From Pseudomonadota bacterium (lineage in GTDB: Bacteria; Myxococcota_A; UBA796; UBA9615): a DNA stretch of 64,000 nucleotides. Below, in pieces: positions 12,796 to 52,939 of this stretch (positions are counted from its first letter, which is position 1; the number at the start of each line of letters is the position of its first letter). Position numbers and translations under genes: made by a program. The notes beneath the pieces are model-generated. The model did not search any database. It had not been told where the DNA came from and saw nothing but the letters and a program-made list of their open reading frames with translations. The stretch lies in the NCBI GenBank assembly GCA_024229515.1, contig JAAESI010000275.1:131181-195180 (forward strand), read 5' to 3'.

Positions 12796-13377
12796 ATGGT
12801 GCGCATCGGCCTGCTCGGAGGATCGTTCAATCCTCCCCACCTCTGCCACGTCCGGCTGTCGGAGTACGTCCTCCAGTCGGGCGCCGTCGACGCCGTGTGG
12901 TGGCTCCCCGTGCACCGCCACGCCTTCGACAAGGACGCAAGCCTCGCTTCCTGGGACGACCGGCTGGCGATGGCGGAGGCCGCGGTCGCGGACCACCCGG
13001 ACCTGCACGTCGACCCCATCGAGTCGACCCTGGCGCCGCCCAGCTACACGGTCCACACCATCGCGGCGCTGCGCGAGCGTCACCCCGAACACACCTTCGT
13101 CTGGCTGGCGGGCGCGGACATCCTCCCCGAACTGCACCTGTGGCACCGCTGGTCGGAGCTGCGGGAGCTGCTCGAGTTCTTGATCGTGGGGCGGGGCGAT
13201 CGAGCCAGGGACGCGCCCGAGGGGGCCCGCATCGACGTGCGCGACTTCACGCTGCCGGACATCTCGTCGTCGCAAGTCCGCCGACGCCTCGCCGCCGGGG
13301 ACCGCGCCGCCGCCCGCGAACTCGTCCCCGCTGCCGTCGCCGACTGGCTGGACGCGCACCCCGACGTCTACGCGTGA
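12796..13377 (+). CDS. nadD: nicotinate-nucleotide adenylyltransferase
   Basis: MVRIGLLGGSFNPPHLCH (GxFxPxH) motif; 193 aa; RBS AGGA upstream. Confidence 0.85.
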   Translation: MVRIGLLGGSFNPPHLCHVRLSEYVLQSGAVDAVWWLPVHRHAFDKDASLASWDDRLAMAEAAVADHPDLHVDPIESTLAPPSYTVHTIAALRERHPEHTFVWLAGADILPELHLWHRWSELRELLEFLIVGRGDRARDAPEGARIDVRDFTLPDISSSQVRRRLAAGDRAAARELVPAAVADWLDAHPDVYA

Positions 13378-14339
13378 CCGACGACCGCCCCAAGCTCCAC
13401 CCGATCGTGGGCACCCCGCTGATCGTGCTCGTGGCGGTGGCGGCGGCGCTCGTAGCGACGGTCGTGCTGATCGCGATCGGCGCCGGAGCAGTGGCGGTCA
13501 CCGAGTCGGATCTGGATGCGCTCCAGTGGGCCCAGCGGAGGCCGCTGCTGGGGATCCTCGTCACCTGGCTGTTCGTCGTCCCCGCCCTGATCGTGTTCGG
13601 CCGCTGGCTGACCGCGCTGTCCCCGCGTGACATGGGCCTGCACCAGGCCGGCTCGTCCCGGCTGTTCATCGTGGGAGGCGTGCTCGGCGCCGCGACCCTG
13701 CTCGCCCCCGCCCTCCTCGGGCGCGCCGTCGGCTGGGTGGAGCCGACGACCTCGACCCTGAACCCCAGCGGCGCGGCGGCCCTGGGGGGTGTGCTGTTCG
13801 CCGTGCCCGCCCTCGCCGTCGCCGCCTTCGGGGAGGAGTTGGCGTTCCGCGGGGTGTTCCTGCCGTATTGGCAGCGGGCCGCAGGAGGTCCCGCCGCGCT
13901 GATCGTGACGGCGTTGCTGTTCGTGCTCCTGCACGGCCTCAACCCGAACGCCAGCGCCCTGGGCTGGGCCGGCATCTTCCTCGCGGGGATCTGGTTGGGG
14001 GTCGCTTTTCAGGTCACGCAGAGCCTGTGGTTCGCCACCGGGCTGCACCTGGGGTGGAACGTGGCGACCTCGCTGATCCTGGGCTTCCGGGTGTCCGGCT
14101 TCGAGCTGCCGTCGCTGCTGCGCTGGCAGACGGTGGACTCACCGTTGGCGGAGCGGCTGCTGGGAGGCAGCTTCGGTCCGGAGGAAGGCATCGCCTTCCA
14201 CTTGTCGCTGACGGTATCGCTGGTCGTCGTGCTGGTGCTGGGGACGTTCGTGGCGCCTACGGATCGCCCAGAAGGAGCGTCGCCGGCAGATCCTGCATCT
14301 CCGCCGTCCCGTCCCCTTCCCCCAGGTACGCCGCAATGA
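13374..14339 (+). CDS. CPBP-family intramembrane metalloprotease (CAAX protease-like)
   Basis: GTG overlaps nadD stop (GTGA); multi-TM; EELAFRG and LHGLNN motifs of Abi/CPBP family. Confidence 0.7.
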   Translation: MTDDRPKLHPIVGTPLIVLVAVAAALVATVVLIAIGAGAVAVTESDLDALQWAQRRPLLGILVTWLFVVPALIVFGRWLTALSPRDMGLHQAGSSRLFIVGGVLGAATLLAPALLGRAVGWVEPTTSTLNPSGAAALGGVLFAVPALAVAAFGEELAFRGVFLPYWQRAAGGPAALIVTALLFVLLHGLNPNASALGWAGIFLAGIWLGVAFQVTQSLWFATGLHLGWNVATSLILGFRVSGFELPSLLRWQTVDSPLAERLLGGSFGPEEGIAFHLSLTVSLVVVLVLGTFVAPTDRPEGASPADPASPPSRPLPPGTPQ

Positions 14340-14769
14340 ACGCGCGAGTGCCGGGGGCGACCTTGCTGTCGAGGTGGAGGTAGAGCTCCGTCCCCTCGTG
14401 GTCCCAGGTCAGGTCGACGGCTCGTATTTGAAGGTAGCCAAAACCGCCTGCGCCTTGAACGACGCCGAAGCGGACGCGCTGGGCCAACCACTCGGGGACT
14501 TTGTCTTGCAGTCCGGGGTCGGCGGGGATCACGTAGTTGCTGACGACGTGAACGGTGCGGCGGGTGTGAAGTTGGTAGGTGTCGATCGATTCGACGAAGT
14601 TGCGGACCGCGCGAACAGCGGCGCGGCGGCGAAGGGTGAAGTCGATCCCGCCTGGCTCCTCAACGGGGAGCGCGATCAACTTGGGAGTACTTCGCCGGCC
14701 GAAGAGCCGGGCGAAGAAACCAGGCCTGGCAGCCCGATTCAGATCGATGCGTCGCTTGCCGCTCGCCAT
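14257..14769 (-). CDS. hypothetical protein
   Basis: 170-aa ORF from ATG with AGGAG 13 nt upstream and TATTAT-like box; overlaps CPBP 3' end by 83 nt. Confidence 0.4.
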   Translation of the reverse strand: MASGKRRIDLNRAARPGFFARLFGRRSTPKLIALPVEEPGGIDFTLRRRAAVRAVRNFVESIDTYQLHTRRTVHVVSNYVIPADPGLQDKVPEWLAQRVRFGVVQGAGGFGYLQIRAVDLTWDHEGTELYLHLDSKVAPGTRAFIAAYLGEGDGTAEMQDLPATLLLGDP

Positions 14770-14852
14770 GGGGTCGATGGATCTCCTACTACTGATAATA
14801 GAGGCCAAGGGGTGTCGCTCCAAGGTGTGAGACGGCTGACCCCCGATCTTCT
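14770..14852 (-). promoter_or_regulatory. AT-richer promoter-like segment (TATTAT, AGGAG) upstream of hypothetical gene
   Basis: Minus-strand tattatcagtagtaggagatccatcgacccc ATG. Confidence 0.3.
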
Positions 14853-16802
14853 TCAATCGCGGCGGCGAACCAGGCCCAGGATCAGGAGCGCGAGTCCCCC
14901 CACGACGGGCGAGGCGCTGGCGGTCGAGGCGTTGCACGCACAGCCGAACGTGGTCGACCGGCTGGTCGCGGCGTCCGCGTCGGTGCCCTGCACGCCCTCG
15001 TCGTCGTCCCACCAGGCGTCGTCGGCGGAGTCGTCGTCGTCGCCGACGGAGTCCGAGTCATCGTCATCGGAGACGTCGTCGTCGTCGGTGGCGTCGTCGT
15101 CGTCGTCGTCGTCGGGACCGTCGTCGTCATCGTCGGTGGCGTCGTCGTCATCGGAGACGTCGTCGTCATCGGAGACGTCGTCGTCATCGCCCGGGGGCAG
15201 CGGGTCTTCGCCGTCGCAGTCCTGGTCGATGCCGTCACCGGGGATGTCGGTGGCGGCGGGGTTGATCGAGGCGTCCGCGTCGTCGCAGTCGGCCGGATCG
15301 TCGCAGGCGAGCCAGCCGTCACCGTCGCCGTCGATCAGGTCGGCGTTGATGCCGTCGCAGTCGCTGTCGGCGCCGTCGCAGATCTCCGGGGCGCCCGGGT
15401 AGATGAAGATGTCGCCGTCGTCGCAGTCGCCGTCGCAGGTGAGGAAGCCGTCGCCGTCCAGGTCGAAGCCTTCGTCGACCACGAGGTCGCAGTCGTTGTC
15501 CACGAAGTCGCAGATCTCGACCGCGCCGGGGAAGACGCCGGCGTCGCTGTCGTCGCAGTCGCCGTCGCACGCCTCGTAGCCGTCACCGTCGGCGTCGAAG
15601 CCCTCGTCGGCGTTGCCGTCGCAGTCGTTGTCGGCCGAGTCGCAGATCTCGGGGGCGCCGGGGTTGATGGCGGCGTTGGTGTCGTTGCAGTCGCCCGCGC
15701 AGGTGGTCCAGCCGTCGCCGTCGCCGTCGAAGCCCTCGTCGACGTTGCCGTCGCAGTCCTGGTCGATCCCGTCGCAGACCTCGGTCGCGCCGGGGGAGAT
15801 GCCGGCGTTGTTGTCCACGCAGTCGCCGCCGCAGGTGGTCCAGCCGTCGCCGTCGCCGTCGAAGCCTTCGTCGACGCTGCCGTCGCAGTCCTGGTCGAGG
15901 CCGTCGCACGCCTCGGAGGCGCCCGGGTTGATGCTGGCGTTGTTGTCCAGGCAGTCGCCCGCGCAGGTGGTCCAGCCGTCGCCGTCGTTGTCGTAGCCCT
16001 CGTCGATGCTGCCGTCGCAGTCGTTGTCGATCGAGTCACACGCCTCGGCCATGCCGGGGTTGATCGAGGGGTTGCCGTCGTCGCAGTCGGTGCTCGCGTC
16101 CCAGCCGTCGCCGTCGGCGTCCGTCACCGGGGGCGGCGGGTAGAAGCCGATGCCGTAGCCGTCGGTCAGGAGCGAGGAGCTGTTGCAGCTGGGGCTCAGG
16201 AGCGCGCCGCCGTAGATGCCGACCGAGGCGGAGGCGCCGTTGGTGTAGGTCGAGCTCCCCAGGTCGGTGTCCAGGTAGACGAACTCGATGTGGTCGTCGA
16301 CGTCGTGGAGCTGGACTTCGAGGGTCACGTCGCCGGTGCCGGCGAAGTTCTCGATGTAGTACCACTCGGCGATGAACACGAGGTTGCCGCCGGGGTCGGT
16401 GCCGGTGCCCGCGTAGACGCCCAGGGAGTTGGTCGCGCTGGGGTCGAGGTCGTCCCAGAAGGGGGCCGCGATGTCGTTGCCGTAGTTGCTCAGCGGGCAC
16501 TGGTTGATGAAGCTCAGCGTGCTGCCGCCGGTCCCGAACGTGATGGCGCCATTGGAGTGCACGCGCACGTCCGTGTAGGTGATCCCATAGAACTCGAACG
16601 AGAAGCCGAGCGCGACCACCTGACTGTCGTCATCGCCCAGACCGAGGGGGCTGCCGGGGGCGTAGTAGTAGGTGCCCGGGGGGCCGGATGGGTCGTTCGT
16701 GTCCGCCCAGGTGTAGCCCCAGGCGTCCGGTCCACCGTTGGCGGCCGCCGCCACGGAGGGGAGGGCGAGCATGAATGGGAGGATCCACCGCAACCGCGAC
16801 AA
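14853..16802 (-). CDS. secreted Cys-rich repeat protein (MopE-like putative metal-binding repeats) with poly-Asp tail and MYXO-CTERM-type sorting signal
   Basis: Signal peptide; 6 repeats DxDGDGWxxCxGDCxDxxxxINPGAxExCDGxDxDCDGxxDEG; DDDDVS/DDDDAT run; C-terminal GCACNASTASASPVVGGLALLILGLVRRRD. Confidence 0.75.
   Translation of the reverse strand: MSRLRWILPFMLALPSVAAAANGGPDAWGYTWADTNDPSGPPGTYYYAPGSPLGLGDDDSQVVALGFSFEFYGITYTDVRVHSNGAITFGTGGSTLSFINQCPLSNYGNDIAAPFWDDLDPSATNSLGVYAGTGTDPGGNLVFIAEWYYIENFAGTGDVTLEVQLHDVDDHIEFVYLDTDLGSSTYTNGASASVGIYGGALLSPSCNSSSLLTDGYGIGFYPPPPVTDADGDGWDASTDCDDGNPSINPGMAEACDSIDNDCDGSIDEGYDNDGDGWTTCAGDCLDNNASINPGASEACDGLDQDCDGSVDEGFDGDGDGWTTCGGDCVDNNAGISPGATEVCDGIDQDCDGNVDEGFDGDGDGWTTCAGDCNDTNAAINPGAPEICDSADNDCDGNADEGFDADGDGYEACDGDCDDSDAGVFPGAVEICDFVDNDCDLVVDEGFDLDGDGFLTCDGDCDDGDIFIYPGAPEICDGADSDCDGINADLIDGDGDGWLACDDPADCDDADASINPAATDIPGDGIDQDCDGEDPLPPGDDDDVSDDDDVSDDDDATDDDDDGPDDDDDDDATDDDDVSDDDDSDSVGDDDDSADDAWWDDDEGVQGTDADAATSRSTTFGCACNASTASASPVVGGLALLILGLVRRRD
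15000..15195 (-). repeat. imperfect tandem repeats encoding DDDDVS / DDDDAT acidic tail of MYXO-CTERM protein
   Basis: gtcgtcgtcatcggagac / gtcgtcgtcggtggc units on + strand. Confidence 0.7.
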
Positions 16803-16865
16803 CCTACCTTGAGATCGCGCTCACGCGCGGGTACAAACCGGGCCCCACCAACGGAGCCCCGCCTG

Positions 16866-29531: not shown

Positions 29532-29610
29532 GGCGCCGTGGTCATAGCACGCGGCTTGCTGAACGCGGGGGCCGCCCTTATGCTCCCGCGGCCCAATCAA
29601 CGGAGTGTCC

Positions 29611-29904
29611 ATGCTCAGGCATGCCCAGTACGAAATCGTGAACAGTGTCGCTGGTGTTACCCACACCTGTGATCGCGTGTTCCGTCGCGGATCCACCTTC
29701 AAGTGGCAGAGCTACCACGTGGATCCGGGCATCGGCGCCCCGTACGTCTGGATGCTCGCCCGCTGCCACGGCTGCCAGCGCCTCTTCATCCAGCCCCCGC
29801 GTTACCCCAACGAGGAGTTCCGCGAGACGCTGCGCGAGGCGATCAACAAGTCCATCGCGAACAAGTTCATCTCGTTCAAGTGGCCCGAAGAGGCCGAAGC
29901 GTAG
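29611..29904 (+). CDS. small hypothetical protein with H-x-C ... C-H-x-C (possible zinc ribbon)
   Basis: CGGAG RBS 5 nt before ATG; locally lower GC and atypical codon usage (AAG/TTC/ATC-rich). Confidence 0.35.
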   Translation: MLRHAQYEIVNSVAGVTHTCDRVFRRGSTFKWQSYHVDPGIGAPYVWMLARCHGCQRLFIQPPRYPNEEFRETLREAINKSIANKFISFKWPEEAEA

Positions 29905-29928: not shown

Positions 29929-30660
29929 TTGCCTACGATGACCTTCGTGCCCCGCGTGCTCGCCCTAGCGCTCCTGAGCGCCCTGCTGCTTCCCACCCCC
30001 GCCCTCGCCGGCAAGCCCGATGACGTCTCGGACGTCGTGGAGTTCGATCCGCAGCAGTGGCGAACGGTGGCGGAGGGCCTGCCTGCCTTCCAGGAGTACC
30101 GACAGCGCCGGCTCGTGCTCACGATCCGCAACGGCGAGTTCATCGGCCCCGGGCACCTGGGCTACCGGCGCAGCTCCTTCCGCGAGGACAACGCTTCGTT
30201 CTTCTACATCGTGGTCGAGGGGGACGCGGACTACCGCCTCACCTACTCCGACCTCATCCGGCTCAGCGGAGACCCCGTCGTCGTCAACCGGTACGAGCGC
30301 TTCATCGCCGCCGCCCGGAAGGACCAGACCTCCGGCGCGGCCCTGTTCGGCGTGGGCGTCGGCTTCGCCCTCGCGTCCGTGATCGTGAGCTCCATCGCGT
30401 TCGAGGAGTGGAACAACACGTGGTCGCCGGCGGTGCTGCCCCCGCTGTACGGCGGCACCATCACGTTCATGCTCGTGGGCGGCGGGCTGGCCGCCCAGGG
30501 CAAGCACACGCAGCAGCAGTTGGCCGAGGACTATCGGCTGGAGCGCATCCTCGATCGGGACGAAGCGTGGGCCGCGATCCAGCGCCACAACGCAGCCCTC
30601 CGACGGGAGCTCGGCCTCCCCGATGACGAGCGCATGGACGCCCCCACCGCTCAGCGCTGA
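29929..30660 (+). CDS. hypothetical membrane protein
   Basis: Signal peptide VLALALLSALLLPTPALA plus two TM segments; 243 aa. Confidence 0.5.
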   Translation: MPTMTFVPRVLALALLSALLLPTPALAGKPDDVSDVVEFDPQQWRTVAEGLPAFQEYRQRRLVLTIRNGEFIGPGHLGYRRSSFREDNASFFYIVVEGDADYRLTYSDLIRLSGDPVVVNRYERFIAAARKDQTSGAALFGVGVGFALASVIVSSIAFEEWNNTWSPAVLPPLYGGTITFMLVGGGLAAQGKHTQQQLAEDYRLERILDRDEAWAAIQRHNAALRRELGLPDDERMDAPTAQR

Positions 30661-31175
30661 AGCAGCTCCTCCATCGCGCCTTCCCAGGCCTCGATGGACT
30701 GCCACCCGGCCCACTCCCGGAACACCTTGCCGTCCCGGTCCAGGACGATGCCGTAGGGGATGACCTCGGGGTACGTGCCCCCCAGACCCGCAACCGCCGC
30801 GAGCAGCTTGGGCTGGGGCGCGGCGGGCACGATGTAGGGGGTGAAGGTCGCGCCGGTGAGGCCGAGCATGTCCTCCAGCGCACCGATGTCCGTGTCGACC
30901 GAGACGATGACGAACTTGATGTCGTCGCCTTCCCACTGCTTCACCGTGCGGTTGAGCCCGGGGAGCGACGACTGGCACGCGGGGCATCAGCTGGCCCACA
31001 GGTACAGGACGGTGATCTTGCCCGCGGCGGTGCCCGCTTCGACCTGCTGAACGACGTGGTTGAGCGCCACGGGCTGCACCGGGGCGGAGCGGTGCAGGGA
31101 GCCTCGCGGGATCAGCGTGATGAGGCCCAGGACGCCGACGAGGCCGCCCAGCACCAACACCAGCGCTTTGCGCAT
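30651..31175 (-). pseudogene. TlpA/ResA-like thiol:disulfide oxidoreductase (thioredoxin fold) interrupted by in-frame TGA
   Basis: Continuous frame MRKALVLVLGGLVGVLGLITL...GKITVLYLWAS[TGA]CPACQSSLPGLNRTVKQWEGDDIKFVIVSVD...; TGA at 30987-30989 replaces Trp of WCxxC; two track ORFs (30987..31250, 30651..30944) are the halves. Confidence 0.6.
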
Positions 31176-31182
31176 CAGCCGC

Positions 31183-34100
31183 CTACGGGTCGCAGTCGAG
31201 GAAGATCGTGTACTCGCCCTCGTTGGCGTTCGCCTCCGTCGCCGTTGCATCGACCACGAAGTAGTACGTGTAGCCGGAGACCACCTCGACGGTGCCGCTG
31301 TTGAAAATCAGGGCGCCTTCGACGCACTGGTTGTTCACGCACTCGCCGTTGGTGCCGTCCAACACGACGATGTCGTGGTTCAGGTCCGCGGGGCTGGCGT
31401 CCACGAAGCCGACCTCGATCGACCCGGTGACCGTGGAGACCCACTCGTAGGCGACTTCCGGCGCGTGGTAGTTGCCCACGTTGCAGGGGTAGCCGTCCAT
31501 CGAGTCGGTCTGGCCGGGGCTCGGGCTGTCGTCGGTCCAGCTGTTGTCTCCGTCGAGGAAGTCGCCGCAGCTGATCTGGATGGCGCCGTCGGTGTCGCAG
31601 TAGGCGGCGCAACCGGGCGCGCCATTGCAGTCGTCGTCGTCGCAGTCGATGAGCTCGTCGTTGTCGTCGTCGACGCCGTTGCCGCAGTCCTCGGCGTCCT
31701 CGACCGGCTCGCAGTCGACGGCGATCTCGAAGTCGCCCTCGTCGCCCTGGTAGCCGTCCACGACGATCCAGTAGTCACCGCCCGGCTCGGTCTCGAACTC
31801 GGCCGACAGAGCGCCGAACTCGATGCAGCTCTCGCTGCTGCAGGGGATGCCCTGGTCGTCCAGGATGAAGACGTCGAGGTCGATGCCGCTGGCGTAGCTC
31901 AAGTCCACGGACACGTTGTTGGCCTGGTCCAGCGGAGCCTGGAAGTAGTAGGCGAACTCCGGCCCGGACTCGACCCAGCTGGTGCAGCTGTAGCTGTCGA
32001 CCTGGTCGGTGCTGTTGGGGCCACCGTTGTTGTAGCTGTCGACGCTGCCGCAGAAGAGCGACCAGGCCTCGGCGCAGATCTCGGTGCAGACGACCTTGTC
32101 CTCGCAGGCGGGGTCGTCGCAGTCGGTCAGGCCGTTGCCGTCGTCGTCGACCTCGTTGCCGCAGACCTCAGCCGTGCTCGGGCACTCGACCTCGATGTCG
32201 AAGCTGCCCTGCGCGCCCTCGTAGCCGTCGATGACGAAGTAGTACTGCTCGCCTCCGACCGCGTCGAAGTTGATGCAGCTGTTGCCGAAGTCGGAGCAGT
32301 TGTTCCCGTTGCAGCCGCCGTTCTCGTCGATGAGGAACATGTCCAGATCGGAGCTCAGGTTGCTGATGCAGACCGTGATGGACTCGTCGACCTCCGGCCG
32401 GAACACGTACGTGTACTCGGGTCCGGTCTCTTCCCAACCGACGCAGCTGTACTGGTCGATGTTGTTGGTGCTGCCGCCGCCCCAGTTGGTCCAGGCGTCG
32501 GTGTCGCCGCAGGACAGCTCCCAGGCGTCCTCGCAGACGCCGCCGACGCCGATGACGTCGCAGTCCTCGTCGCCTTCGCAGTCCACGTCGTCGCAGTCCG
32601 CGGCGCCGTCGCCGTCGTCGTCCACGAAGTTGTCGCAGACCTCGCCGCAGATCGGGTCGTCGCCGGAGCACTCCTGATCGTCGCAGTCCACGTCGCCGTC
32701 GCCGTCGTCGTCGATGTTGTTGTTGCAGTCCTCGACGAGGCAGGCGGAGTCGCTGATGCAGTCCGCGTCGGCGCAGTCCACGTCGCCGTCCCAGTCGTTG
32801 TCGATGGCGTCGTCGCAGTCCTCGATGCCGCAGAAGGAGGCGCAGTCCTCGTCGTCGCAGTCGACGTCACCGTCGCCGTCGTCGTCGGTGTTGTTGGTGC
32901 AGTCCTCCGCGCACGAGGGCAAGGAGGCGCAGTCGGTGTCGTTGCAGTCCACGGCGCCATCGCTGTCGTTGTCGAGGTCGTCGTCGCAGATCTCCGAGGC
33001 CGAGGTGCAGGCGGGGGTGCCGGTGCACTCGCTGTCGGCGCAGTCGATCTGGCCGTCATCGTCGTTGTCGATGTCGTCGTTGCAGATCTCGTCGATGCAG
33101 TCGGTGAACAGGTAGCAGCCGGTGTCGTCGCAGTCGGTGTCGAGGTCGCCGTCGTTGTCGATGCCGTCGTCGCAGATCTCGTCGTCGCATGACGGCCAGC
33201 CGAGGCAGTCGTCGTCGTCGCAGTCCAGGTCGCCGTCCAGGTCGTTGTCGATGCCGTCCCAGCACAGCTCCTCCTGGCAGTCGATCGAGTCGACGCACTC
33301 GGCGTCGTCGCAATCGGCGGCGAGGTCGCCGTCGTCGTCGGTGCCGTTCCAGCAGATCTCCGCGATGCAGTTACTGTCCGCGGTGCAGGTCGGGTCGGCG
33401 CAGTCGATGAGGCCGTCGCCGTTGTCGTCGATGTCGTTGGAGCAGTCCTCCTGCGAGTCGGCGCAGACGGGGTTGCCGACGCACTCCAGGTCGGCGCAGT
33501 CGGTCTGGCCGTCGGCGTCGTCGTCGAGGCCGTTGGAGCAGTTCTCCGGCATGCAGGTGGGGGCCACCGAGCACTCCACGTCGGCGCAGTCGATCTGGGC
33601 GTCGCCGTCGTCGTCGACGCCGTTGCTGCAGTCCTCGGGCGTGCACGCGGGGGTTCCGTCGCACTCGTCGTCGGCGCAGTCGATGAAGCCGTCGCCGTCG
33701 TCGTCGATCGTGTTTGTGCAGCCCTCGGGGATGCAGTCGCTGTCGGAGCTGCAGTCCGTGTCGCCGCAGTCCACCGCACCGTCGCCGTCGTTGTCGCTGC
33801 CGTCGGCGCAGTCCTCGCTGAGGATCCAGCAGAAGATGTCGAACAGGCAGGCGATGTCGTCGCAGTCGATGTCGCCGTTGGCGTTGTCGTCGAGGTTGTT
33901 GGCGCAGTCCTCGCCGCCGCTGCCGCCGCAGTCGGTGGACTCGGCGCAGTTGGCGTCCTCGCAGTCGATGGCGCCGTCGCCGTCGTTGTCGATGCCGTCG
34001 TTGCAAATCTCCGGCTCGGGGGCGCCGCACGCGGGGGTGTCGATGCACTGCGGGTCGTTGCAGTCGATCAGGCCGTTGCCGTTGTCGTCGATGCTGTTGG

Positions 34101-36270
34101 TGCAGATCTCGAAGCCCTCACCGCCGCAGGCCGGGTCGGGGCCGCAGTCGCCGATGTCGGCGCAGTCGATGAGCGCGTCGCCGTCGTCGTCCACGCCGTT
34201 GGTGCAATCGGTCTCGCTGCCGCCGGGGCCGCCGGGGTTGCAGGCGGGGTGGCCCGTGCAGTCGCTGTCGAAGCAGTCGACGTCGCCGTCGCCGTCGTTG
34301 TCGATGTTGTCGATGCAGTCCTCACCCGAGCAGGCCGGGAGGATGCTGCACTCGGTGTCGGAGCAGTCGATGAGGCCGTCGTCGTCGTCGTCGATGCCGT
34401 TGTCGCAGATCTCGCCGACGCAGGCGGCGTCCACCGCGCAGTCGGAGTCGGCGCAGTCGACCTGGCCGTCACCGTCGTTGTCGACGCCGTCGGTGCAGAC
34501 CTCGGGCACGCAGCCGGGGGTGCCGGCGCAGTCGCTGTCGTCGCAGTCGGTGGCGCCGTCGCCGTCGTTGTCGATGCCGTCGGTGCAGTCCTCCGGCGCG
34601 CCGCCGAGGTTGCACTCGATGTCGAGGTCGAAGGAGCCGACGTTGTTGTTCCAGCCGTCGACGACGACGTAGTAGGTCGTGCCGCCGACCACGGTCATGG
34701 TCACCGACTCGGGGTTGGTGCCGCCGGAGGTGGAGCTGTCGAGGCAGCCGTCGGGGCTGCAGCCGCCCGCGTCCTGGAGGCCGAAGAGGTCCAGGTCGGC
34801 GTCGAGGCCGTTGAGCGTGAACGTCACCTCACCGGAGCCGGTGGGGGTGAAGCTCCAGGCCAGCTCGTTGCCGTTCTCGTTGGACGGGGTGCACGAGTAG
34901 GTGCTGATGACGTCCGCCGCGCCGGGGTCGGTGTCGGTGTTGCCCGAGATGGTCCCGGAGTCGCAGGTGATGGTGCCGACGGGGTTGCAGGTCTGCACGC
35001 AGAAGGCGCTGGTGGCGCACTCGCTGTCGTCGCAGTCGATGGCGCCGTCGCCGTCGTCGTCGGTGCCGTTGCCGCAGTTCTCGACGTTGCAGTTGGGGTG
35101 GCTGAAGCACTCGGGGTCGGCGCAGTCGACGGCCGCGTCGCCGTCGTCGTCGATCAGGTTGTCGCAGATCTCGACGTCGCAGCCGGGGAGCACGAAGCAC
35201 TCGTCGTCGTCACAGTCGATGAGGCCGTCGCCGTCGTCGTCCAGGCCGTTGAAGCAGTCGTCCTCGGGGATGCAGTCGCTGTCGCCGAAGCAGTCGCTGT
35301 CGTCGCAGTCGGTGAGGCCGTCACCGTCGTTGTCGATGCCGTCGCGGCACTCTTCGTTGTTGCAGGTCGGGTAGCCGAAGCACTCGGAGTCATCGCAGTC
35401 GACGAGGCCGTTGCCGTTGTCGTCGATGCCGTTCTCGCAGTCCTCGCCGTCGCAGGAGGGCTCGCCCCAGCACTCGGTGTCGTCACAGTCGACGTAGCCG
35501 TCGCCGTCGTCGTCGAGGTTGTTGTCGCACTCCTCGTCGAGGCAGTACGGGTCGAGGGAGCAGTCGAGGTCGTCGCAGTCGATGTCGCCGTCGCCGTCGT
35601 CGTCGATGCCGTTGAAGCAGTTCTCGCCGTCGCCGCCGCCAGAGGGGCAGAGGAGCTCGAGGCTGAAGTTGTCCTGGCCGCCGGCGTAGCCGTCGACGAC
35701 GACGAGGTAGTCCTCGCCCGCGGACGCGGTGAAGTGCACGGTGGAGGCGCCGTAGGCGATGCAGTCGGTGCCTTCGCAGGTGCCGTCGTCCTCGAGTACG
35801 AAGACGTCGAGGTTGCCGTGACCGGCGACCGTCAGGACCGCGGTGACCTCCTCCGTCGTGGTCGGGCTGAAGCTGAAGGTGTACTCGGGACCGGACTCGT
35901 CCCACGTCGTGCAGGAGTCGTACGTGTCGACCGCGTCGGTGTGGCCCGCGCCGCCGTTGTTGGAGCTGAGGATGTCGCCGCAGGAGATCGACTCAGCCGC
36001 GGTGCACTCGTGCGCGCAGTTCGGGTTGAGCTCGCAGTCCTCGTCACCGCAGTCGGTGAGGCCGTCGCCGTCGTCGTCGATCCCGTTGGAGCAGTCCTCG
36101 TTGTCGTAGGTCTGCGTCGGGTTGTCGTCGTCGTCGTCGGGCAGGTTCAGGGAATCATCGTCATCAAGAACGGTGTTGTCCGTGATGCCGCAGTTGCAAC
36201 CTGCCAGGAGCAGGGGCAGCAGCAGCAGCAGGAACATCTTGGTACAGCCAGAAATCGAGGCAGCGCGCAT
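31183..36270 (-). CDS. giant secreted lipoprotein: arrays of 28-aa 4-Cys Asp-rich repeats alternating with five beta-sandwich (PPC-like) domains
   Basis: RBS GGAG, MRAASISGCTKMFLLLLLPLLLAGC; about 50 repeats C-x-[ND]-G-x-D-[DN]-[DN]-G-[DN]-G-x-x-D-C-x-D-x-x-C-x(4,5)-C; about 1.7 kaa, >200 Cys. Confidence 0.8.
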   Translation of the reverse strand: MRAASISGCTKMFLLLLLPLLLAGCNCGITDNTVLDDDDSLNLPDDDDDNPTQTYDNEDCSNGIDDDGDGLTDCGDEDCELNPNCAHECTAAESISCGDILSSNNGGAGHTDAVDTYDSCTTWDESGPEYTFSFSPTTTEEVTAVLTVAGHGNLDVFVLEDDGTCEGTDCIAYGASTVHFTASAGEDYLVVVDGYAGGQDNFSLELLCPSGGGDGENCFNGIDDDGDGDIDCDDLDCSLDPYCLDEECDNNLDDDGDGYVDCDDTECWGEPSCDGEDCENGIDDNGNGLVDCDDSECFGYPTCNNEECRDGIDNDGDGLTDCDDSDCFGDSDCIPEDDCFNGLDDDGDGLIDCDDDECFVLPGCDVEICDNLIDDDGDAAVDCADPECFSHPNCNVENCGNGTDDDGDGAIDCDDSECATSAFCVQTCNPVGTITCDSGTISGNTDTDPGAADVISTYSCTPSNENGNELAWSFTPTGSGEVTFTLNGLDADLDLFGLQDAGGCSPDGCLDSSTSGGTNPESVTMTVVGGTTYYVVVDGWNNNVGSFDLDIECNLGGAPEDCTDGIDNDGDGATDCDDSDCAGTPGCVPEVCTDGVDNDGDGQVDCADSDCAVDAACVGEICDNGIDDDDDGLIDCSDTECSILPACSGEDCIDNIDNDGDGDVDCFDSDCTGHPACNPGGPGGSETDCTNGVDDDGDALIDCADIGDCGPDPACGGEGFEICTNSIDDNGNGLIDCNDPQCIDTPACGAPEPEICNDGIDNDGDGAIDCEDANCAESTDCGGSGGEDCANNLDDNANGDIDCDDIACLFDIFCWILSEDCADGSDNDGDGAVDCGDTDCSSDSDCIPEGCTNTIDDDGDGFIDCADDECDGTPACTPEDCSNGVDDDGDAQIDCADVECSVAPTCMPENCSNGLDDDADGQTDCADLECVGNPVCADSQEDCSNDIDDNGDGLIDCADPTCTADSNCIAEICWNGTDDDGDLAADCDDAECVDSIDCQEELCWDGIDNDLDGDLDCDDDDCLGWPSCDDEICDDGIDNDGDLDTDCDDTGCYLFTDCIDEICNDDIDNDDDGQIDCADSECTGTPACTSASEICDDDLDNDSDGAVDCNDTDCASLPSCAEDCTNNTDDDGDGDVDCDDEDCASFCGIEDCDDAIDNDWDGDVDCADADCISDSACLVEDCNNNIDDDGDGDVDCDDQECSGDDPICGEVCDNFVDDDGDGAADCDDVDCEGDEDCDVIGVGGVCEDAWELSCGDTDAWTNWGGGSTNNIDQYSCVGWEETGPEYTYVFRPEVDESITVCISNLSSDLDMFLIDENGGCNGNNCSDFGNSCINFDAVGGEQYYFVIDGYEGAQGSFDIEVECPSTAEVCGNEVDDDGNGLTDCDDPACEDKVVCTEICAEAWSLFCGSVDSYNNGGPNSTDQVDSYSCTSWVESGPEFAYYFQAPLDQANNVSVDLSYASGIDLDVFILDDQGIPCSSESCIEFGALSAEFETEPGGDYWIVVDGYQGDEGDFEIAVDCEPVEDAEDCGNGVDDDNDELIDCDDDDCNGAPGCAAYCDTDGAIQISCGDFLDGDNSWTDDSPSPGQTDSMDGYPCNVGNYHAPEVAYEWVSTVTGSIEVGFVDASPADLNHDIVVLDGTNGECVNNQCVEGALIFNSGTVEVVSGYTYYFVVDATATEANANEGEYTIFLDCDP
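31250..36150 (-). repeat. intragenic tandem repeats (84-nt unit, about 50 copies in blocks) encoding the 28-aa 4-Cys Asp-rich module
   Basis: Recurrent gtcgcagtc...gccgtcgccgtcgtcgtcgat...gcagtc pattern on + strand; protein-level periodicity. Confidence 0.8.
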
Positions 36271-36289
36271 GTTCATCTCCGAACCAGTT

Positions 36290-36411
36290 CCCTCAGAGAG
36301 AGGGACAACAGACCGTGTCAAGAACGTGTCAAGAGGTCAAGTGCAGCGGCGTTCCATCACAACGATTCCACAGGTCGGCCACATAAGTATGATGCCCGCG
36401 CGCGTCGCGGC
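36290..36411. promoter_or_regulatory. divergent promoter region (giant repeat-protein gene <-> ftsE) with three tandem TTGAC[AC] hexamers / GTCAAG direct repeats
   Basis: + strand GTGTCAAGAACGTGTCAAGAGGTCAAG (36315-36341) = minus-strand TTGACC-TTGACA-TTGACA; locally lower GC; TAAGTAT box before ftsE. Confidence 0.4.
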
Positions 36412-37245: not shown

Positions 37246-38135
37246 CGCCCTACGCCGTCCGCCGCGCCTTCAAGGGCATCGTCGAGCATCGCTTCCTCGC
37301 CGTGGCGACGATCGGCACCGTCGCCACCGTGCTCATCCTCGGCGGCGCGTTCCTGCTGGTCATCACCAACCTCTCGGGCCTGCTCGACCGCTGGGGCCAG
37401 GACGTGCAGGTCAGCTGCTACCTCCGCGAGGACGTCGGCGACGAGGCGCTGTTCGCCATCAAGGCGGAGATCGAGGCCATGCCGGAGGTCATCTCCGTCC
37501 GGTACGTCAGCCAGGACGAGGCGCTGGAGCGGTTCGGTGAAGCAGTCGACGGCATGGACCGCATCCTCGCCGACCTGGACAGCAACCCCCTCCCCGCCAG
37601 CCTGGAGGTCCGCCTCCGCCCCGAGCTCCAGCAGCCCGCCCGGGTCGCCGACGTCGCCTCGCGGCTGTCACGCCCCGAGTTCGAGGACATGGACTGGAGT
37701 CAGGAGTGGGTGGAGCGGTTCCACACCTTCTTGGGGCTGCTGCGGCTGAGCGCGCTGGTGCTCGGAACGCTGCTCCTGGCGGCGGCGATGTTCCTCGTCA
37801 ACACGACGATCCGCCTCGCGATCCACTCGCGCCGCGACGAGCTCGAGATCATCCAGCTCGTCGGCGGCACCCGGTGGTTCGCGCGGACCCCGTTCGTGGT
37901 CGAGGGGATGGCCCTGGGGGGACTCGGAGCGCTGGTCGCCCTCGCCGTTCTTCCCCTCCTCTACAAGTACGCGTTCGTGCAACTGCAAGCGTCCCTGGGG
38001 ATGCTCCTGAGCATGGGCACCGTCGAGTTCCTGCCGGTTCCCACGCTGCTGGGCTTGTTCGTCGCGGGGCTCGCCGTCGGCTTCGTCGGCGCCTTCACGT
38101 CCGTCATCCGCTCCAACGTCGGGACCGTGTCGTGA
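37242..38135 (+). CDS. ftsX: cell-division permease FtsX
   Basis: GTG overlaps ftsE stop (GTGA); 4 TM with large periplasmic loop, typical FtsX topology. Confidence 0.85.
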   Translation: MTPYAVRRAFKGIVEHRFLAVATIGTVATVLILGGAFLLVITNLSGLLDRWGQDVQVSCYLREDVGDEALFAIKAEIEAMPEVISVRYVSQDEALERFGEAVDGMDRILADLDSNPLPASLEVRLRPELQQPARVADVASRLSRPEFEDMDWSQEWVERFHTFLGLLRLSALVLGTLLLAAAMFLVNTTIRLAIHSRRDELEIIQLVGGTRWFARTPFVVEGMALGGLGALVALAVLPLLYKYAFVQLQASLGMLLSMGTVEFLPVPTLLGLFVAGLAVGFVGAFTSVIRSNVGTVS

Positions 38136-39169
38136 ACCGCGCCGTGGCCGTCGTGCTGCTGCTGCTGGCGGTGCCGGCGGGAGCGCAGACCCGCCAGGAT
38201 CGGTTGGACGCGCTGGACCGGCTCGAGGTCGAGCTGTTGCGCATCGACGAAGAGCTGCGGGCGGCGTCGATCCGCCTCCGCGAGCAGGATGGGCGCCTCC
38301 GCGAGCTGGAGGCCGACCTGGCGGAGGCCGAGGAGCGGCTGGAAGAGCGACGCGGACGGCTTGAGCTGCGGCTGCGGGCGATGTACCGCATGCGGCACCG
38401 GGGCTTCCTCCCCCTGCTGTTCGCGGCCGACAGCCCCCATGAGCTGCTTCGATCGGCCCGGTACCTGTGGTGGATCGTGCGCGCGGACCAAAGCGCGATC
38501 GACGACTGGCGGGCCCAGGAGGAGGCGGTTGACCAGCTGCGCGCGAGCGTGGAGGCGGAGCGGGAGTCGCTGCTGCAATGGGCGGGCGAGCAGAGCCTCC
38601 GGCGTGAGCAGGCGCTGGCGGAGCGGGGCGAGCACGAGGCGTCGGTGGGCCGCGTGCGCAGCTCGACCGACCGGCGGCGGATGAAGACCGTCATCGTGCC
38701 CGACGGCAACCCGAGCCCCACCGTCGACGTCTCCATCGACCTGCGCGGAGAAGAGCCGCCGCCCGAGTTGGCCTCCGAGGTCGTCGCCCCCCAGACGACG
38801 TTCGAGCGGAGCAAGGGCATGCTCCCCCTGCCCGCCGTCGGCACCCTCGAGCGGGCCTCCCGCGGCGTCGACATCGCCGTCATCGAGGGCAGCTCGATCC
38901 GCGCGGTCCACGGCGGCACGGTCTTCAAGGTCGTCGACATCGAGGGGTTCGGCCGCGTCTGCATCCTCGACCACGGCGACGGCTGGCACACGGTCTACGG
39001 CCTCGCGGAGGGCTTCGACGTGCGCTCGGGCGAGCACGTGGCGGGCGGCGACGTCATAGGACGGGCGGGCGCCAACGGCCTGCACTTCGAGGTCCGGCAG
39101 GGCCGCGACGCCGCCGATCCGTTCGAATGGCTCGCCATCCCCCCCGGAGTGAGGGTACGAGGGCGCTGA
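38132..39169 (+). CDS. envC: murein hydrolase activator EnvC-like (coiled-coil + LytM/M23 domain)
   Basis: GTG overlaps ftsX stop; signal peptide; long coiled coil; C-terminal M23 fold (HGDGWHTVYG...GLHFE). Confidence 0.8.
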   Translation: MNRAVAVVLLLLAVPAGAQTRQDRLDALDRLEVELLRIDEELRAASIRLREQDGRLRELEADLAEAEERLEERRGRLELRLRAMYRMRHRGFLPLLFAADSPHELLRSARYLWWIVRADQSAIDDWRAQEEAVDQLRASVEAERESLLQWAGEQSLRREQALAERGEHEASVGRVRSSTDRRRMKTVIVPDGNPSPTVDVSIDLRGEEPPPELASEVVAPQTTFERSKGMLPLPAVGTLERASRGVDIAVIEGSSIRAVHGGTVFKVVDIEGFGRVCILDHGDGWHTVYGLAEGFDVRSGEHVAGGDVIGRAGANGLHFEVRQGRDAADPFEWLAIPPGVRVRGR

Positions 39170-39909
39170 TGCTTTCGGTCGTCCTGCCCGCGCACAACGA
39201 AGCCGACAACCTCGCACCCATGCTGCGCGACGGGTTCGCGGCGCTGGATCCGTTGGCCGATCCCCTCGAGTTCGTCATCGTCGACGACGGCAGCACCGAC
39301 CGCACGTGGGCGGTGCTGGAGCAGTTGGCGCAGAGTGACGCCCGCGTGCGCCCCGTGCGTCACGAGCGGAACCGCGGCTACGGCGCTGCGTTGGCGACCG
39401 GCCTCGCCGCGGCCCGCCACGACCTCGTGCTGCTGTGCGACGCCGACCGGCAGTTCGACCTCGCCGACGCCCCCGCGATGCTGGAAGCGGCAGAGGACAG
39501 CGACGTGGTGGCGGGCTACCGCGCGCCCCGACGCGACCCCGGAGGCCGTCGGTTCATCGGCCAGACGTGGTCCCGCCTCGTCGGTGGCCTGTACGGCCTC
39601 GGCGTCCGGGACGTGAACTGCGCGCTCAAGCTGTTCCACCGTCGGGCCCTGGAGTCGGTGGAGATCCGCAGCCGCGGAGCCCTCGTCAGCGCCGAGATCC
39701 TCGCGCAGGTGCGCGGCGCCGGGCACCGCATCGCCGAAGTCCCCGTCCGCCACTACCCCCGCACCGCCGGGGCTCAGTCGGGCGCGCGGGCGGACGTCGT
39801 GCTCAAGGCGCTCCTGGAGCTGGTGCAGAACCACCGCCGGCTGCGTGCATGCGCGCGACCTCCACGGGGAACAGGATCGCGTAGCCGTCAGTCTTCGCCG
39901 CTTCGATGA
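39169..39909 (+). CDS. family-2 glycosyltransferase (dolichol/polyprenol-phosphate hexosyltransferase-like)
   Basis: ATG overlaps envC stop (TGATG); MLSVVLPAHNEADN, VIVDDGSTD, DAD motifs; 3' end overlaps convergent gene by 107 nt. Confidence 0.8.
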   Translation: MLSVVLPAHNEADNLAPMLRDGFAALDPLADPLEFVIVDDGSTDRTWAVLEQLAQSDARVRPVRHERNRGYGAALATGLAAARHDLVLLCDADRQFDLADAPAMLEAAEDSDVVAGYRAPRRDPGGRRFIGQTWSRLVGGLYGLGVRDVNCALKLFHRRALESVEIRSRGALVSAEILAQVRGAGHRIAEVPVRHYPRTAGAQSGARADVVLKALLELVQNHRRLRACARPPRGTGSRSRQSSPLR

Positions 39910-52151: not shown

Positions 52152-52290
52152 TCGCGCATGCTTGAAATGGACCTTGTTCAGCCCCACCAGTTCGTATCTC
52201 CGCCTCAAACTCAGCTGCCTCGCCGTCGGGTGTGCGCCCCGGCAGGGCTCCTTGTGCCTCAATGCTGCCTACGAATCAACCCTGGGGCCC

Positions 52291-52836
52291 CTAGTCGACC
52301 GGCGACGAATCGGGGGGTCGCGTGGACCCACCGTCGGCTCCGCCGAACTCCGTATCCGCGCTGTCCGAACCCTCGAATCGAACAACTACTCGAGTCTGTC
52401 CGGGGAACGACGTCCCCACCTGGCCGATGCAGGCCTCGGCCTCAGCCGTGACCGCCTGGCCCTGCTCCCGCGCGATGTACGCCTTGCGGAAGTTGTGCTC
52501 CTGAAGATCCGCGTTCTCGCGGGCGACCGCCTCGGCGAGCCCGTGCTCGGCGTCCTGAGCGACCTTGTGCAGGCCCTTGAGCAGGCCAAGCTTCTCGTTC
52601 AGGCAGTTCAGGAGAATGACGTCGTTGGTGGATGCAGCGGTCTCGATCAGACCGAGCACCAGCTTCATGGACGCGTCCAGCTCATCGACCGTGGCGGAGG
52701 CGAAATCGTCTTTTTGCTTGGCGGTGAGGTCGGATCCCATGATCTCATCGCTGGTCGGTTCTTCCGCGGCGAGCGCGGGAACCGCCAGAGCAAGCGCGGC
52801 CACAAGGGCCAAGCTGCTGAGCCAAATTCGGGGCAT
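52291..52836 (-). CDS. secreted hypothetical protein
   Basis: Signal peptide MPRIWLSSLALVAALALAVPALA; 180 aa, helical. Confidence 0.45.
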   Translation of the reverse strand: MPRIWLSSLALVAALALAVPALAAEEPTSDEIMGSDLTAKQKDDFASATVDELDASMKLVLGLIETAASTNDVILLNCLNEKLGLLKGLHKVAQDAEHGLAEAVARENADLQEHNFRKAYIAREQGQAVTAEAEACIGQVGTSFPGQTRVVVRFEGSDSADTEFGGADGGSTRPPDSSPVD

Positions 52837-52939
52837 GTAGGCGCTACCTCGACTCATGTGGACCTCTCCTGCAGCGGACCGGAGCCACAGTGACTGAGTA
52901 TGGGTTCGCTTAACCCACCTGTCAAACCAGCCTTATCGG

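Follow-up and report, generated by a model that had tools for sequence, protein, structure and literature searches.

What does an in-frame TGA signify when it stands inside the active-site motif of a thioredoxin-fold protein? Such a codon is the typical pattern sought in hunts for selenoproteins, and it occurs in the 64-kb stretch of DNA analyzed here (the window), which belongs to an uncultured marine Myxococcota-like bacterium with a GC content of ~70%. A tlpA/resA-like thioredoxin-fold gene on the minus strand (30651..31175), recognized from its translation, Pfam matches, the alignment of orthologues, and cluster names, comprises 174 codons and a terminal TGA, and is interrupted at codon 63, where TGA (30987..30989, minus strand) takes the place of the TGG encoding the tryptophan of WCxxC. 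The preliminary description of the locus had pointed to this substitution and to the single G-to-A change that separates it from an intact gene, and both statements are borne out: the translated frame reads ...GKITVLYLWAS-TGA-CPACQSSLPGLNRTVKQWEGDDIKF..., the column at 30989..30987 is invariably Trp (ASWCxxC) in the orthologues, and apart from the change of TGG to TGA the frame is intact. We consider it probable that the TGA is an ordinary, recent nonsense mutation that has become fixed in the species, leaving the tlpA-like gene as a young nonsense pseudogene.

The stop divides the reading frame into 62 and 111 codons, and no uninterrupted ORF containing W-C-x-x-C is left. The CxxC redox motif, CPAC (C64–C67; 30975..30986, minus strand), lies downstream of the stop and is therefore missing from the 62-residue product. 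This product does include an N-terminal hydrophobic signal-anchor (MRKALVLVLGGLVGVLGLITLIPR; 31104..31175, minus strand), read from the sequence, in which residues 4–23 form a hydrophobic stretch of ~20 residues that the orthologues, by inspection, have in common; the anchor implies that the protein would face the periplasm. Translation most likely begins at the ATG at 31175, 8 nt past the TAG of the upstream gene, and not at the ATG at 31250, to which the gene had initially been extended and which lies inside that upstream gene. Rescue by a translational restart was considered and rejected: the first in-frame start after the TGA is a GTG at codon 78, past the CxxC, and the 97-residue C-terminal ORF that gene finders call from it (30651..30944, minus strand) has neither the CxxC nor a membrane anchor. 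An ATG overlapping the stop (TGATG) opens a frame of non-coding-like character. In the NCBI annotation of the metagenome-assembled genome (MAG), the halves appear as two hypothetical proteins, one of 62 aa (GY898_28515) and one of 97 aa (GY898_28510), and both are colinear, in a single frame, with full-length orthologues (E = 2.5e-61). That the stop falls on a Trp position is unsurprising for a nonsense mutation, because a single transition can create a stop in this gene in 21 ways, 12 of which involve its six Trp codons.

With W at codon 63, the translation exceeds the Pfam cut-offs for Thioredoxin_8 (42.8 bits, cut-off 27), AhpC-TSA (42.5, cut-off 26), and Redoxin (36.3, cut-off 26.6), so that its predicted product is placed among the TlpA/ResA-like thioredoxin-fold oxidoreductases at the superfamily level. 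The codon-63 column matches WASWCGPC and WGTWCKPC of the solved DsbE and ResA structures (3gl3 and 4nmu). The thioredoxin fold, the N-terminal anchor, and the register of W-C-x-x-C are shared with the membrane-anchored periplasmic oxidoreductases TlpA, ResA, DsbE (CcmG), and StoA, whereas the gene differs from these in its interruption at the Trp and in scoring far below every named NCBIfam cut-off (TlpA NF047696, 35.2 versus 230 bits; ResA NF002854, 27.2 versus 170; DsbE TIGR00385, 24.7 versus 123; StoA NF041202, 32.8 versus 210). The clade to which it belongs is small and rare, with six protein clusters in 5.8 billion; a scan of GTDB found an orthologue in only three representative genomes, the window's own species not being among them. 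Genes for cytochrome maturation or copper chaperones were not found in the annotated parts of the window.

Directly upstream lies a gene for a giant, 1712-residue acidic double-disulfide-repeat lipoprotein (31183..36321, minus strand) with a PPC domain, a lipobox (LLAGC), and 28 NF033662 repeats (E = 6e-179). It contains 362 Asp and 163 Cys, fewer than the >200 Cys first ascribed to it. The likeness to acidic double-disulfide repeat proteins (NF033662) is thus a property of this neighbor, to which the tlpA-like gene is tied by adjacency only. On the other side, a convergent 243-aa gene with no assigned function (29929..30660, plus strand) overlaps the 3' end of the tlpA-like gene by 10 bp, and a conserved gene of 97–99 aa (29605..29904, plus strand) served as the anchor for synteny. 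The comparison of orthologues that had been proposed gave a uniform result: all seven distinct intact orthologous lineages carry TGG at codon 63 and none shares the TGA, and we infer that TGG is the ancestral state. These seven orthologues are located elsewhere in their genomes and not beside the giant gene. The closest syntenic relative is a sister lineage, L024, whose contig was found in two samples and whose giant gene is 89% identical at its C-terminus. Its tlpA-like gene has kept the TGG, but an in-frame deletion of 180 bp, equivalent to codons 65–124 (30804..30983 on the minus strand of the window; protein P0006), has removed the catalytic core including the second Cys; the breakpoints show an AGCTG microhomology. 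In four further relatives, syntenic but more distant, the giant gene and the anchor gene are both present, but the interval between them contains neither a tlpA-like gene nor a remnant of one. That the sister lineage has lost its copy through a lesion of another kind makes the tlpA-like gene appear dispensable within the small clade. The suggestion that it encodes the redox partner of the Cys-rich neighbor is not supported, as it rests solely on adjacency, the intact orthologues lying elsewhere and four relatives possessing the giant gene with no tlpA-like gene next to it.

Several other explanations of the TGA have to be weighed. One base separates the gene from an intact state and the contig containing the window was assembled from a metagenome, circumstances under which a sequencing or assembly error concealing a true TGG might be suspected. 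The probability of such an error is nevertheless negligible, since an identical TGA occurs in nine assemblies of the same species, obtained from several samples and through varied pipelines (NCBI, ENA, and Logan), despite distinct SNPs in or near the gene; at least five haplotypes are represented, and it is their differences at C329A, C74T, T133G (V45G), and I19V that make the assemblies independent. A full-length TGG allele of the window's species was found neither in the database of 5.8 billion protein clusters nor in a JGI metagenome scan. Reassignment of TGA to Trp, genome-wide or partial, through code 4 or a UGA-reading tRNA-Trp variant, would explain why the TGA sits exactly at a conserved Trp, and UGA-decoding tRNA-Trp variants with 4-bp anticodon stems have recently been reported across bacteria (PMC13092985). 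However, among the window's stop-to-stop segments that are coding-like and span 100 codons or more, a list that includes antisense frames, 26 of 59 (~44%) end in TGA, and the tlpA-like gene itself terminates at a TGA where the orthologues end, which together refute a full reassignment. Trp is encoded by TGG at the gene's five other Trp positions, and no other pair of coding-like ORFs split by TGA was found in the window; we therefore regard a change in the genetic code, even a partial one, as very improbable. The same holds for the view that the gene encodes a selenoprotein, with selenocysteine (Sec) beside the CxxC in a U-C-x-x-C site, which the preliminary description had likewise thought unlikely. 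Deltaproteobacteria-like lineages are often users of Sec, thioredoxin-fold and ResA-like selenoproteins exist, and a hairpin can be drawn that begins 18 nt 3' of the UGA. Against this stands the fact that Trp, not Cys, is found opposite the TGA in all homologues, those with solved structures included, while in nearly all selenoproteins Sec pairs with Cys in the homologues (PMC13188914). The WAxxUGC family (NF041054) and the UxxC thioredoxin-fold selenoproteins resemble the present case in having an in-frame TGA within the active-site motif, and NF041054 also in its ResA-like fold, but there the TGA is conserved, accompanied by a SECIS, and located at the first Cys, one residue further to the right, whereas here it occupies the preceding Trp in one species with no SECIS signal; the match to NF041054 is accordingly weak (19.7 bits, cut-off 300). 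The SECIS-like hairpin, proposed earlier as a check, turned out to be ordinary: the fold after the UGA has −24.2 kcal/mol compared with a mean of −23.5 after TGG codons (z = −1.2 versus shuffles), a fold at least as good follows 44% of the window's 207 TGG codons, and the TGG orthologues fold equally well. Rfam gave no matches at the locus or in the whole window, and no orthologue has a TGA. Neither tRNA-Sec nor selA, selB, or selD was detected in the 64 kb (ARAGORN; Pfam on ~45 window ORFs), a result that says nothing about the remainder of the genome.

Recoding in the form of read-through deserves a closer comparison with the nonsense mutation. According to this explanation, the stop is leaky and tolerated or selected, near-cognate Trp-tRNA-Trp restores the ancestral Trp, and selection preserves the frame, the gene being a hypomorph or down-tuned. 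Among stop codons UGA leaks most, with read-through of 1e-2 to 1e-3 (PMC4989110), and Trp-tRNA-Trp competes with RF2 in reading it (PMC10570021). The downstream frame is perfectly intact, with no second stop or frameshift, and of the 48 columns invariant in the family, 43 are conserved in the window's copy, as many as in the intact P0001. The pooled dN/dS between this copy and that of L024 is 0.46, i.e. below 1 (p = 0.008), and the first seven assemblies differ at the DNA level by two SNPs, both of them synonymous. A dN/dS below 1 would, however, be expected of a recent lesion in any case, and the full set of population variants consists of two synonymous and two nonsynonymous changes (pN/pS ~0.36, with n = 4 being too few to show neutrality), one of which, V45G, is non-conservative at a V/L column. 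In addition, the stop is conserved in none of the orthologues, the sister lineage, which has TGG, deleted the catalytic core outright, which argues for dispensability, and the structure downstream of the stop is not exceptional. The base after the TGA is T (+4U), a context that lowers stop read-through (PMC5289835). Of the read-through option raised at the outset, a low level of leak may thus be retained, while nothing suggests a programmed event, the stop being unique to one species, placed in a +4U context, and lacking a stimulatory structure. The situation resembles that of the classical leaky UGA mutants of Salmonella and E. coli, in which wild-type tRNA-Trp suppresses the stop at a low level, in that TGG has changed to TGA and read-through would insert the original residue; those are laboratory mutants, in contrast to the TGA of the window, which is fixed in a wild population and has a poor +4U context. 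On balance, we judge a tolerated or selected leaky stop to be unlikely. A stronger version, in which the UGA is maintained because Trp-tRNA-Trp, possibly a UGA-reading variant, decodes it often enough to be useful and so yields the wild-type WCxxC enzyme again, with the stop as a built-in attenuator, is distinctly improbable; if it were true, the oxidoreductase would be made at a very low dose compared with the giant disulfide-repeat protein co-transcribed with it. The variant of this idea in which Sec is inserted beside the CxxC is even less likely.

We therefore return to the nonsense mutation, the option from the preliminary description that the comparative data favor and that is strengthened by the loss of 60 codons which arose independently in the sister lineage. 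The premature stop contrasts with intact orthologues and is reproduced in independent data. In the model we propose, a single G-to-A transition would have converted the TGG of the active-site Trp to TGA in a gene for a membrane-anchored TlpA/ResA-like oxidoreductase, and the mutation would then have become fixed in the window's species. Translation would normally stop at codon 63 and yield a 62-residue anchor fragment, and since this fragment lacks the CxxC, the gene would be a young pseudogene. Residual activity, if any, would stem from Trp-tRNA-Trp, which ordinarily misreads UGA at a low level. Because such near-cognate reading restores the wild-type residue, a weak hypomorph is conceivable, and the gene would be that at most. 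The signs of dispensability, namely the deletion in L024 and the absence of the gene from the four syntenic relatives, stand beside a lack of further decay, the dN/dS of 0.46, and the pN/pS from four variants. A mild excess of lineage-specific substitutions (25 versus 12, p = 0.03) was obtained with one outgroup, the other outgroups giving no significant result. The lesion at codon 63 is evidently young. Two observations belong beside this reading: the gene shows no decay apart from the stop, which is a point against a pseudogene, and a dN/dS below 1 is equally expected from a gene that is still useful.

These results correct the public annotation of the MAG, in which GY898_28515 and GY898_28510 would together make up a single TlpA-like pseudogene, one half each. 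As the locus displays the pattern typically pursued in selenoprotein hunts, it is mostly valuable as a clean negative, and the combination of pairing with Trp, a missing SECIS signal, and orthologues with TGG provides a recipe for dismissing candidates of this kind. There is also a small evolutionary point. Both lineages that have a tlpA-like gene behind the giant gene have inactivated it, each in a different way, and the giant acidic disulfide-repeat protein therefore does not appear to depend on the tlpA-like gene next to it.

The minus-strand frame of the tlpA-like gene runs from an ATG at 31175 to a TGA at 30653..30651 and reads MRKALVLVLGGLVGVLGLITLIPRGS...GKITVLYLWAS*CPACQSSLPGLNRTVKQWEGDD...EELLQR*, the internal stop being a TGA at 30989..30987 (codon 63). 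With Trp at codon 63, three Pfam models (Thioredoxin_8, AhpC-TSA, and Redoxin) score the protein above their curated cut-offs, and an alignment with the solved DsbE and ResA structures puts the stop at the Trp of WASWCGPC and WGTWCKPC. The preliminary description of an in-frame TGA at the Trp of WCxxC is therefore correct. Its gene start at 31250 has to be moved, since that 87-codon ORF begins inside the upstream giant gene (31183..36321, minus strand); the orthologues indicate ATG 31175, 8 nt past the TAG of the giant gene. The position of the stop is no remarkable coincidence, because a stop can arise in this gene through 21 single transitions, 12 of them in its six Trp codons. In the public MAG, the gene is annotated as two hypothetical proteins, GY898_28515 and GY898_28510, one for each half.

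Among 5.8 billion protein clusters searched, the tlpA-like protein has only six relatives; five of them span the site, each with ASWC(P/D/N)xC in the protein alignment. DNA sequences show TGG at this codon in loci L014, L015, L011, and L008, in three GTDB representative genomes (L017-L019), and in a JGI metagenome contig (L020). The TGG orthologues represent seven distinct lineages with 43-60% amino-acid identity to the window's protein. The comparison originally proposed as a check yielded TGG throughout. The TGA of the window is a single G-to-A transition from this ancestral codon.

The closest relative over the C-terminal half, P0006, is yet only 109 aa long. It is encoded by L024 (JGI 3300032524, Ga0335111_1311120, 1658-1999), a sister lineage seen in two samples, which has the gene order of the window (giant repeat gene, tlpA-like gene, and convergent ~244-aa, 97-aa, and ~285-aa genes) and whose giant gene is 89% identical to the window's over the C-terminal 542 aa. 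The active site of its tlpA-like gene keeps AGT TGG TGC, and directly after that Cys 180 bp (60 codons) are missing in frame, equivalent to window codons 65-124 (30804..30983), which removes the second Cys of the CxxC and the fold core. The breakpoints have an AGCTG microhomology in common, as expected for a slippage deletion. The stop in the window and the deletion in L024 are thus two different, independent, inactivating lesions of the same gene in the two closest lineages.

Apart from the stop, the window's gene has no frameshift and no second stop, and of 48 columns that do not vary across the other orthologues it keeps 43, as does intact P0001 (43/48), with P0004 similar (43/47). In the segments retained by both lineages, dN/dS between the window and L024 is 0.57 in the N-terminal part and 0.32 in the C-terminal part (pooled 0.46, significantly below 1, p = 0.008), with values of 0.08 to 0.40 for flanking genes and a dS of 0.3-0.76. 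The undecayed frame and the dN/dS below 1 point to purifying selection on the gene for the greater part of the period since the split of the two lineages, and to lesions that are both recent relative to that split. Population variants (2 synonymous and 2 nonsynonymous, pN/pS ~0.36) are too few to separate constraint from drift. In a relative-rate test, unique changes numbered 25 vs 12 with one outgroup (p = 0.03), and the other outgroups gave no significant difference; acceleration of the window's gene is at most mild.

The gene had also been presumed to be the redox partner of the Cys-rich protein encoded upstream, an idea that synteny undercuts. The giant protein is a 1712-aa lipoprotein with 28 acidic double-disulfide repeats (NF033662, E = 6e-179), one PPC domain, 362 Asp, 6 Lys+Arg, and 163 Cys rather than the more than 200 first counted. 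The 8-nt spacing suggests that the two genes may be co-transcribed in the window. A synteny survey anchored on the 97-aa neighbour (29605..29904, plus strand) covered four more distant relatives (anchor identities 82%, 77%, 74%, and 71%). The anchor and giant genes are present in all four, and the three loci with retrieved DNA show 55-61% identity to the window over the C-terminus of the giant gene. Between these two genes, no tlpA-like gene is called in any of the four (for the 82% locus, P0137, from the gene table only), and tblastn detected no remnant in the three with DNA (E > 0.6), where the gaps span only 190-240 bp. Orthologues of the giant protein get by with no TlpA-like gene beside their own. 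Intact tlpA-like orthologues reside in neighbourhoods unrelated to the window's: P0005 near ABM/glyoxalase-domain and sulfotransferase genes, with bactofilin, ParB, and ParA a few genes further, P0004 next to hydrolase genes, P0002 next to dnaJ, and P0001 after an unrelated gene. Taken together, these loci indicate that the giant gene followed by a tlpA-like gene is an arrangement confined to the window's species and L024, in both of which the tlpA-like gene is broken.

The anchor protein (97-99 aa, no Pfam match, three Cys: C22, C54, and C57) is strongly conserved (91% identity and dN/dS 0.08 vs L024; 23 orthologous clusters), and the window and all the relatives' loci examined have its gene near the giant repeat gene. 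The convergent gene (29929..30660, plus strand, 243 aa), which overlaps the 3' end of the tlpA-like gene by 10 bp, evolves fast, with 63% identity to L024 and 30% to locus L025, and is absent from L026. Content downstream of the giant-gene orthologues (55-89% identity) varies, and the region is evolutionarily plastic. Elsewhere, the window (~70% GC) carries FtsEX, FtsK, LolA, RNase J, RimO, and an ExbBD/TonB cluster, as well as genes for a Ser/Thr kinase, subtilase and S41 peptidases, and a phosphoesterase; RimO is 100% identical to a protein of a MAG labelled 'Proteobacteria bacterium' and shares ~72% identity with proteins from MAGs that bear the names Myxococcota or Deltaproteobacteria. A second Cys-rich secreted-type protein (14853..16820, minus strand, 655 aa, 30 Cys) has seven MopE 'putative metal-binding' repeats, and the opposite strand holds a long frame free of stops, with a transketolase encoded in its 3' part. 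No reading frame passes a GC3-based coding filter in 12826-14800, 38132-39800, or 52268-52940. The representative MAGs of L017-L019 (CAZBKF01, CAZEKB01, and CAZUHI01) are titled 'uncultured Rickettsiales bacterium', a label that looks doubtful because their loci have 70% GC and the L018 protein is that of P0005, whose neighbourhood is Myxococcota-like (bactofilin, ParAB, Ser/Thr kinase).

Sequencing error, initially offered as one possibility, is ruled out by the recurrence of the TGA. P0003, the 97-aa C-terminal fragment called by gene finders, is identical on contigs of GCA_024449815.1, GCA_002896315.2, four ENA assemblies (different BioSamples), and one Logan assembly, all with TGA. The 62-aa N-terminal fragment has two more single-residue variants in other NCBI assemblies, I19V (seen at the protein level) and V45G (GCA_024449685.1), with the same length and end residue, and the V45G contig (L023) has TGA at the DNA level. 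These assemblies are ~0.05-0.1% divergent from the window and therefore represent one species-level population; neither the protein database nor the JGI metagenome collection holds a full-length TGG allele of this species. With several independent assemblies and at least five haplotypes carrying TGA, the stop is real and fixed in the window's species. By the accepted criteria, selenocysteine pairs with Cys in homologues and has a SECIS hairpin directly downstream of the UGA (PMC13188914), whereas here the TGA pairs with Trp. The NCBIfam ResA-like selenoprotein family NF041054 (WAxxUGC) differs in that Sec takes the place of the first Cys, the residue just after the window's stop, and scores the protein at 19.7 bits vs a cut-off of 300. 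A hairpin, which the preliminary description had suggested looking for, is possible 18 nt past the UGA, but shuffled sequence does as well (z = -1.2). The 66 nt that begin with the TGA fold at -24.2 kcal/mol vs a mean of -23.5 kcal/mol for sequence from 207 ordinary TGG codons in the window's genes, 44% of which fold equally well or better; for the orthologues with TGG, the values are -18 to -28 kcal/mol. Rfam has no match at the locus or across the window, and the window contains no tRNA-Sec or sel genes, although a 64-kb stretch is a poor guide to the genome as a whole. The Trp pairing, ordinary fold, TGG orthologues, and low family score argue strongly against selenocysteine, in keeping with the initial judgement. 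Reading of TGA as Trp through a changed code is also very improbable: TGA ends 26 of 59 coding-like stop-to-stop segments of >=100 codons (TAG 32/59; antisense frames are still included), no other coding-like ORF pair in the window is split by TGA, and the other five Trp codons of the gene are TGG. The gene itself terminates at a TGA, where its orthologues end. We give each of these three explanations a negligible probability.

If translation ends at codon 63, the product would be a membrane-anchor fragment of 62 residues that lacks the CxxC. The first in-frame restart, a GTG at codon 78, lies beyond the CxxC and lacks the anchor, so re-initiation cannot rescue function. The main rival is a leaky hypomorph, tolerated or selected. 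UGA is the leakiest bacterial stop codon (1e-2 to 1e-3; PMC4989110) and is decoded by Trp-tRNA-Trp, which competes with RF2 (PMC10570021), so that, judging from this literature, a small share of ribosomes would restore the exact ancestral protein. However, the base after the TGA is U, a +4 context that PMC5289835 associates with reduced read-through. We regard such a hypomorph as unlikely, and a UGA maintained as a self-correcting leaky stop as very improbable. The recent nonsense mutation that the preliminary description listed is supported by the ancestral TGG, the TGA in independent assemblies, and the otherwise undecayed frame, and the tlpA-like gene is probably a young nonsense pseudogene. 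Real but ordinary, the feature is a nonsense pseudogene of recent origin, found in a natural population and belonging to a rare TlpA-like clade.
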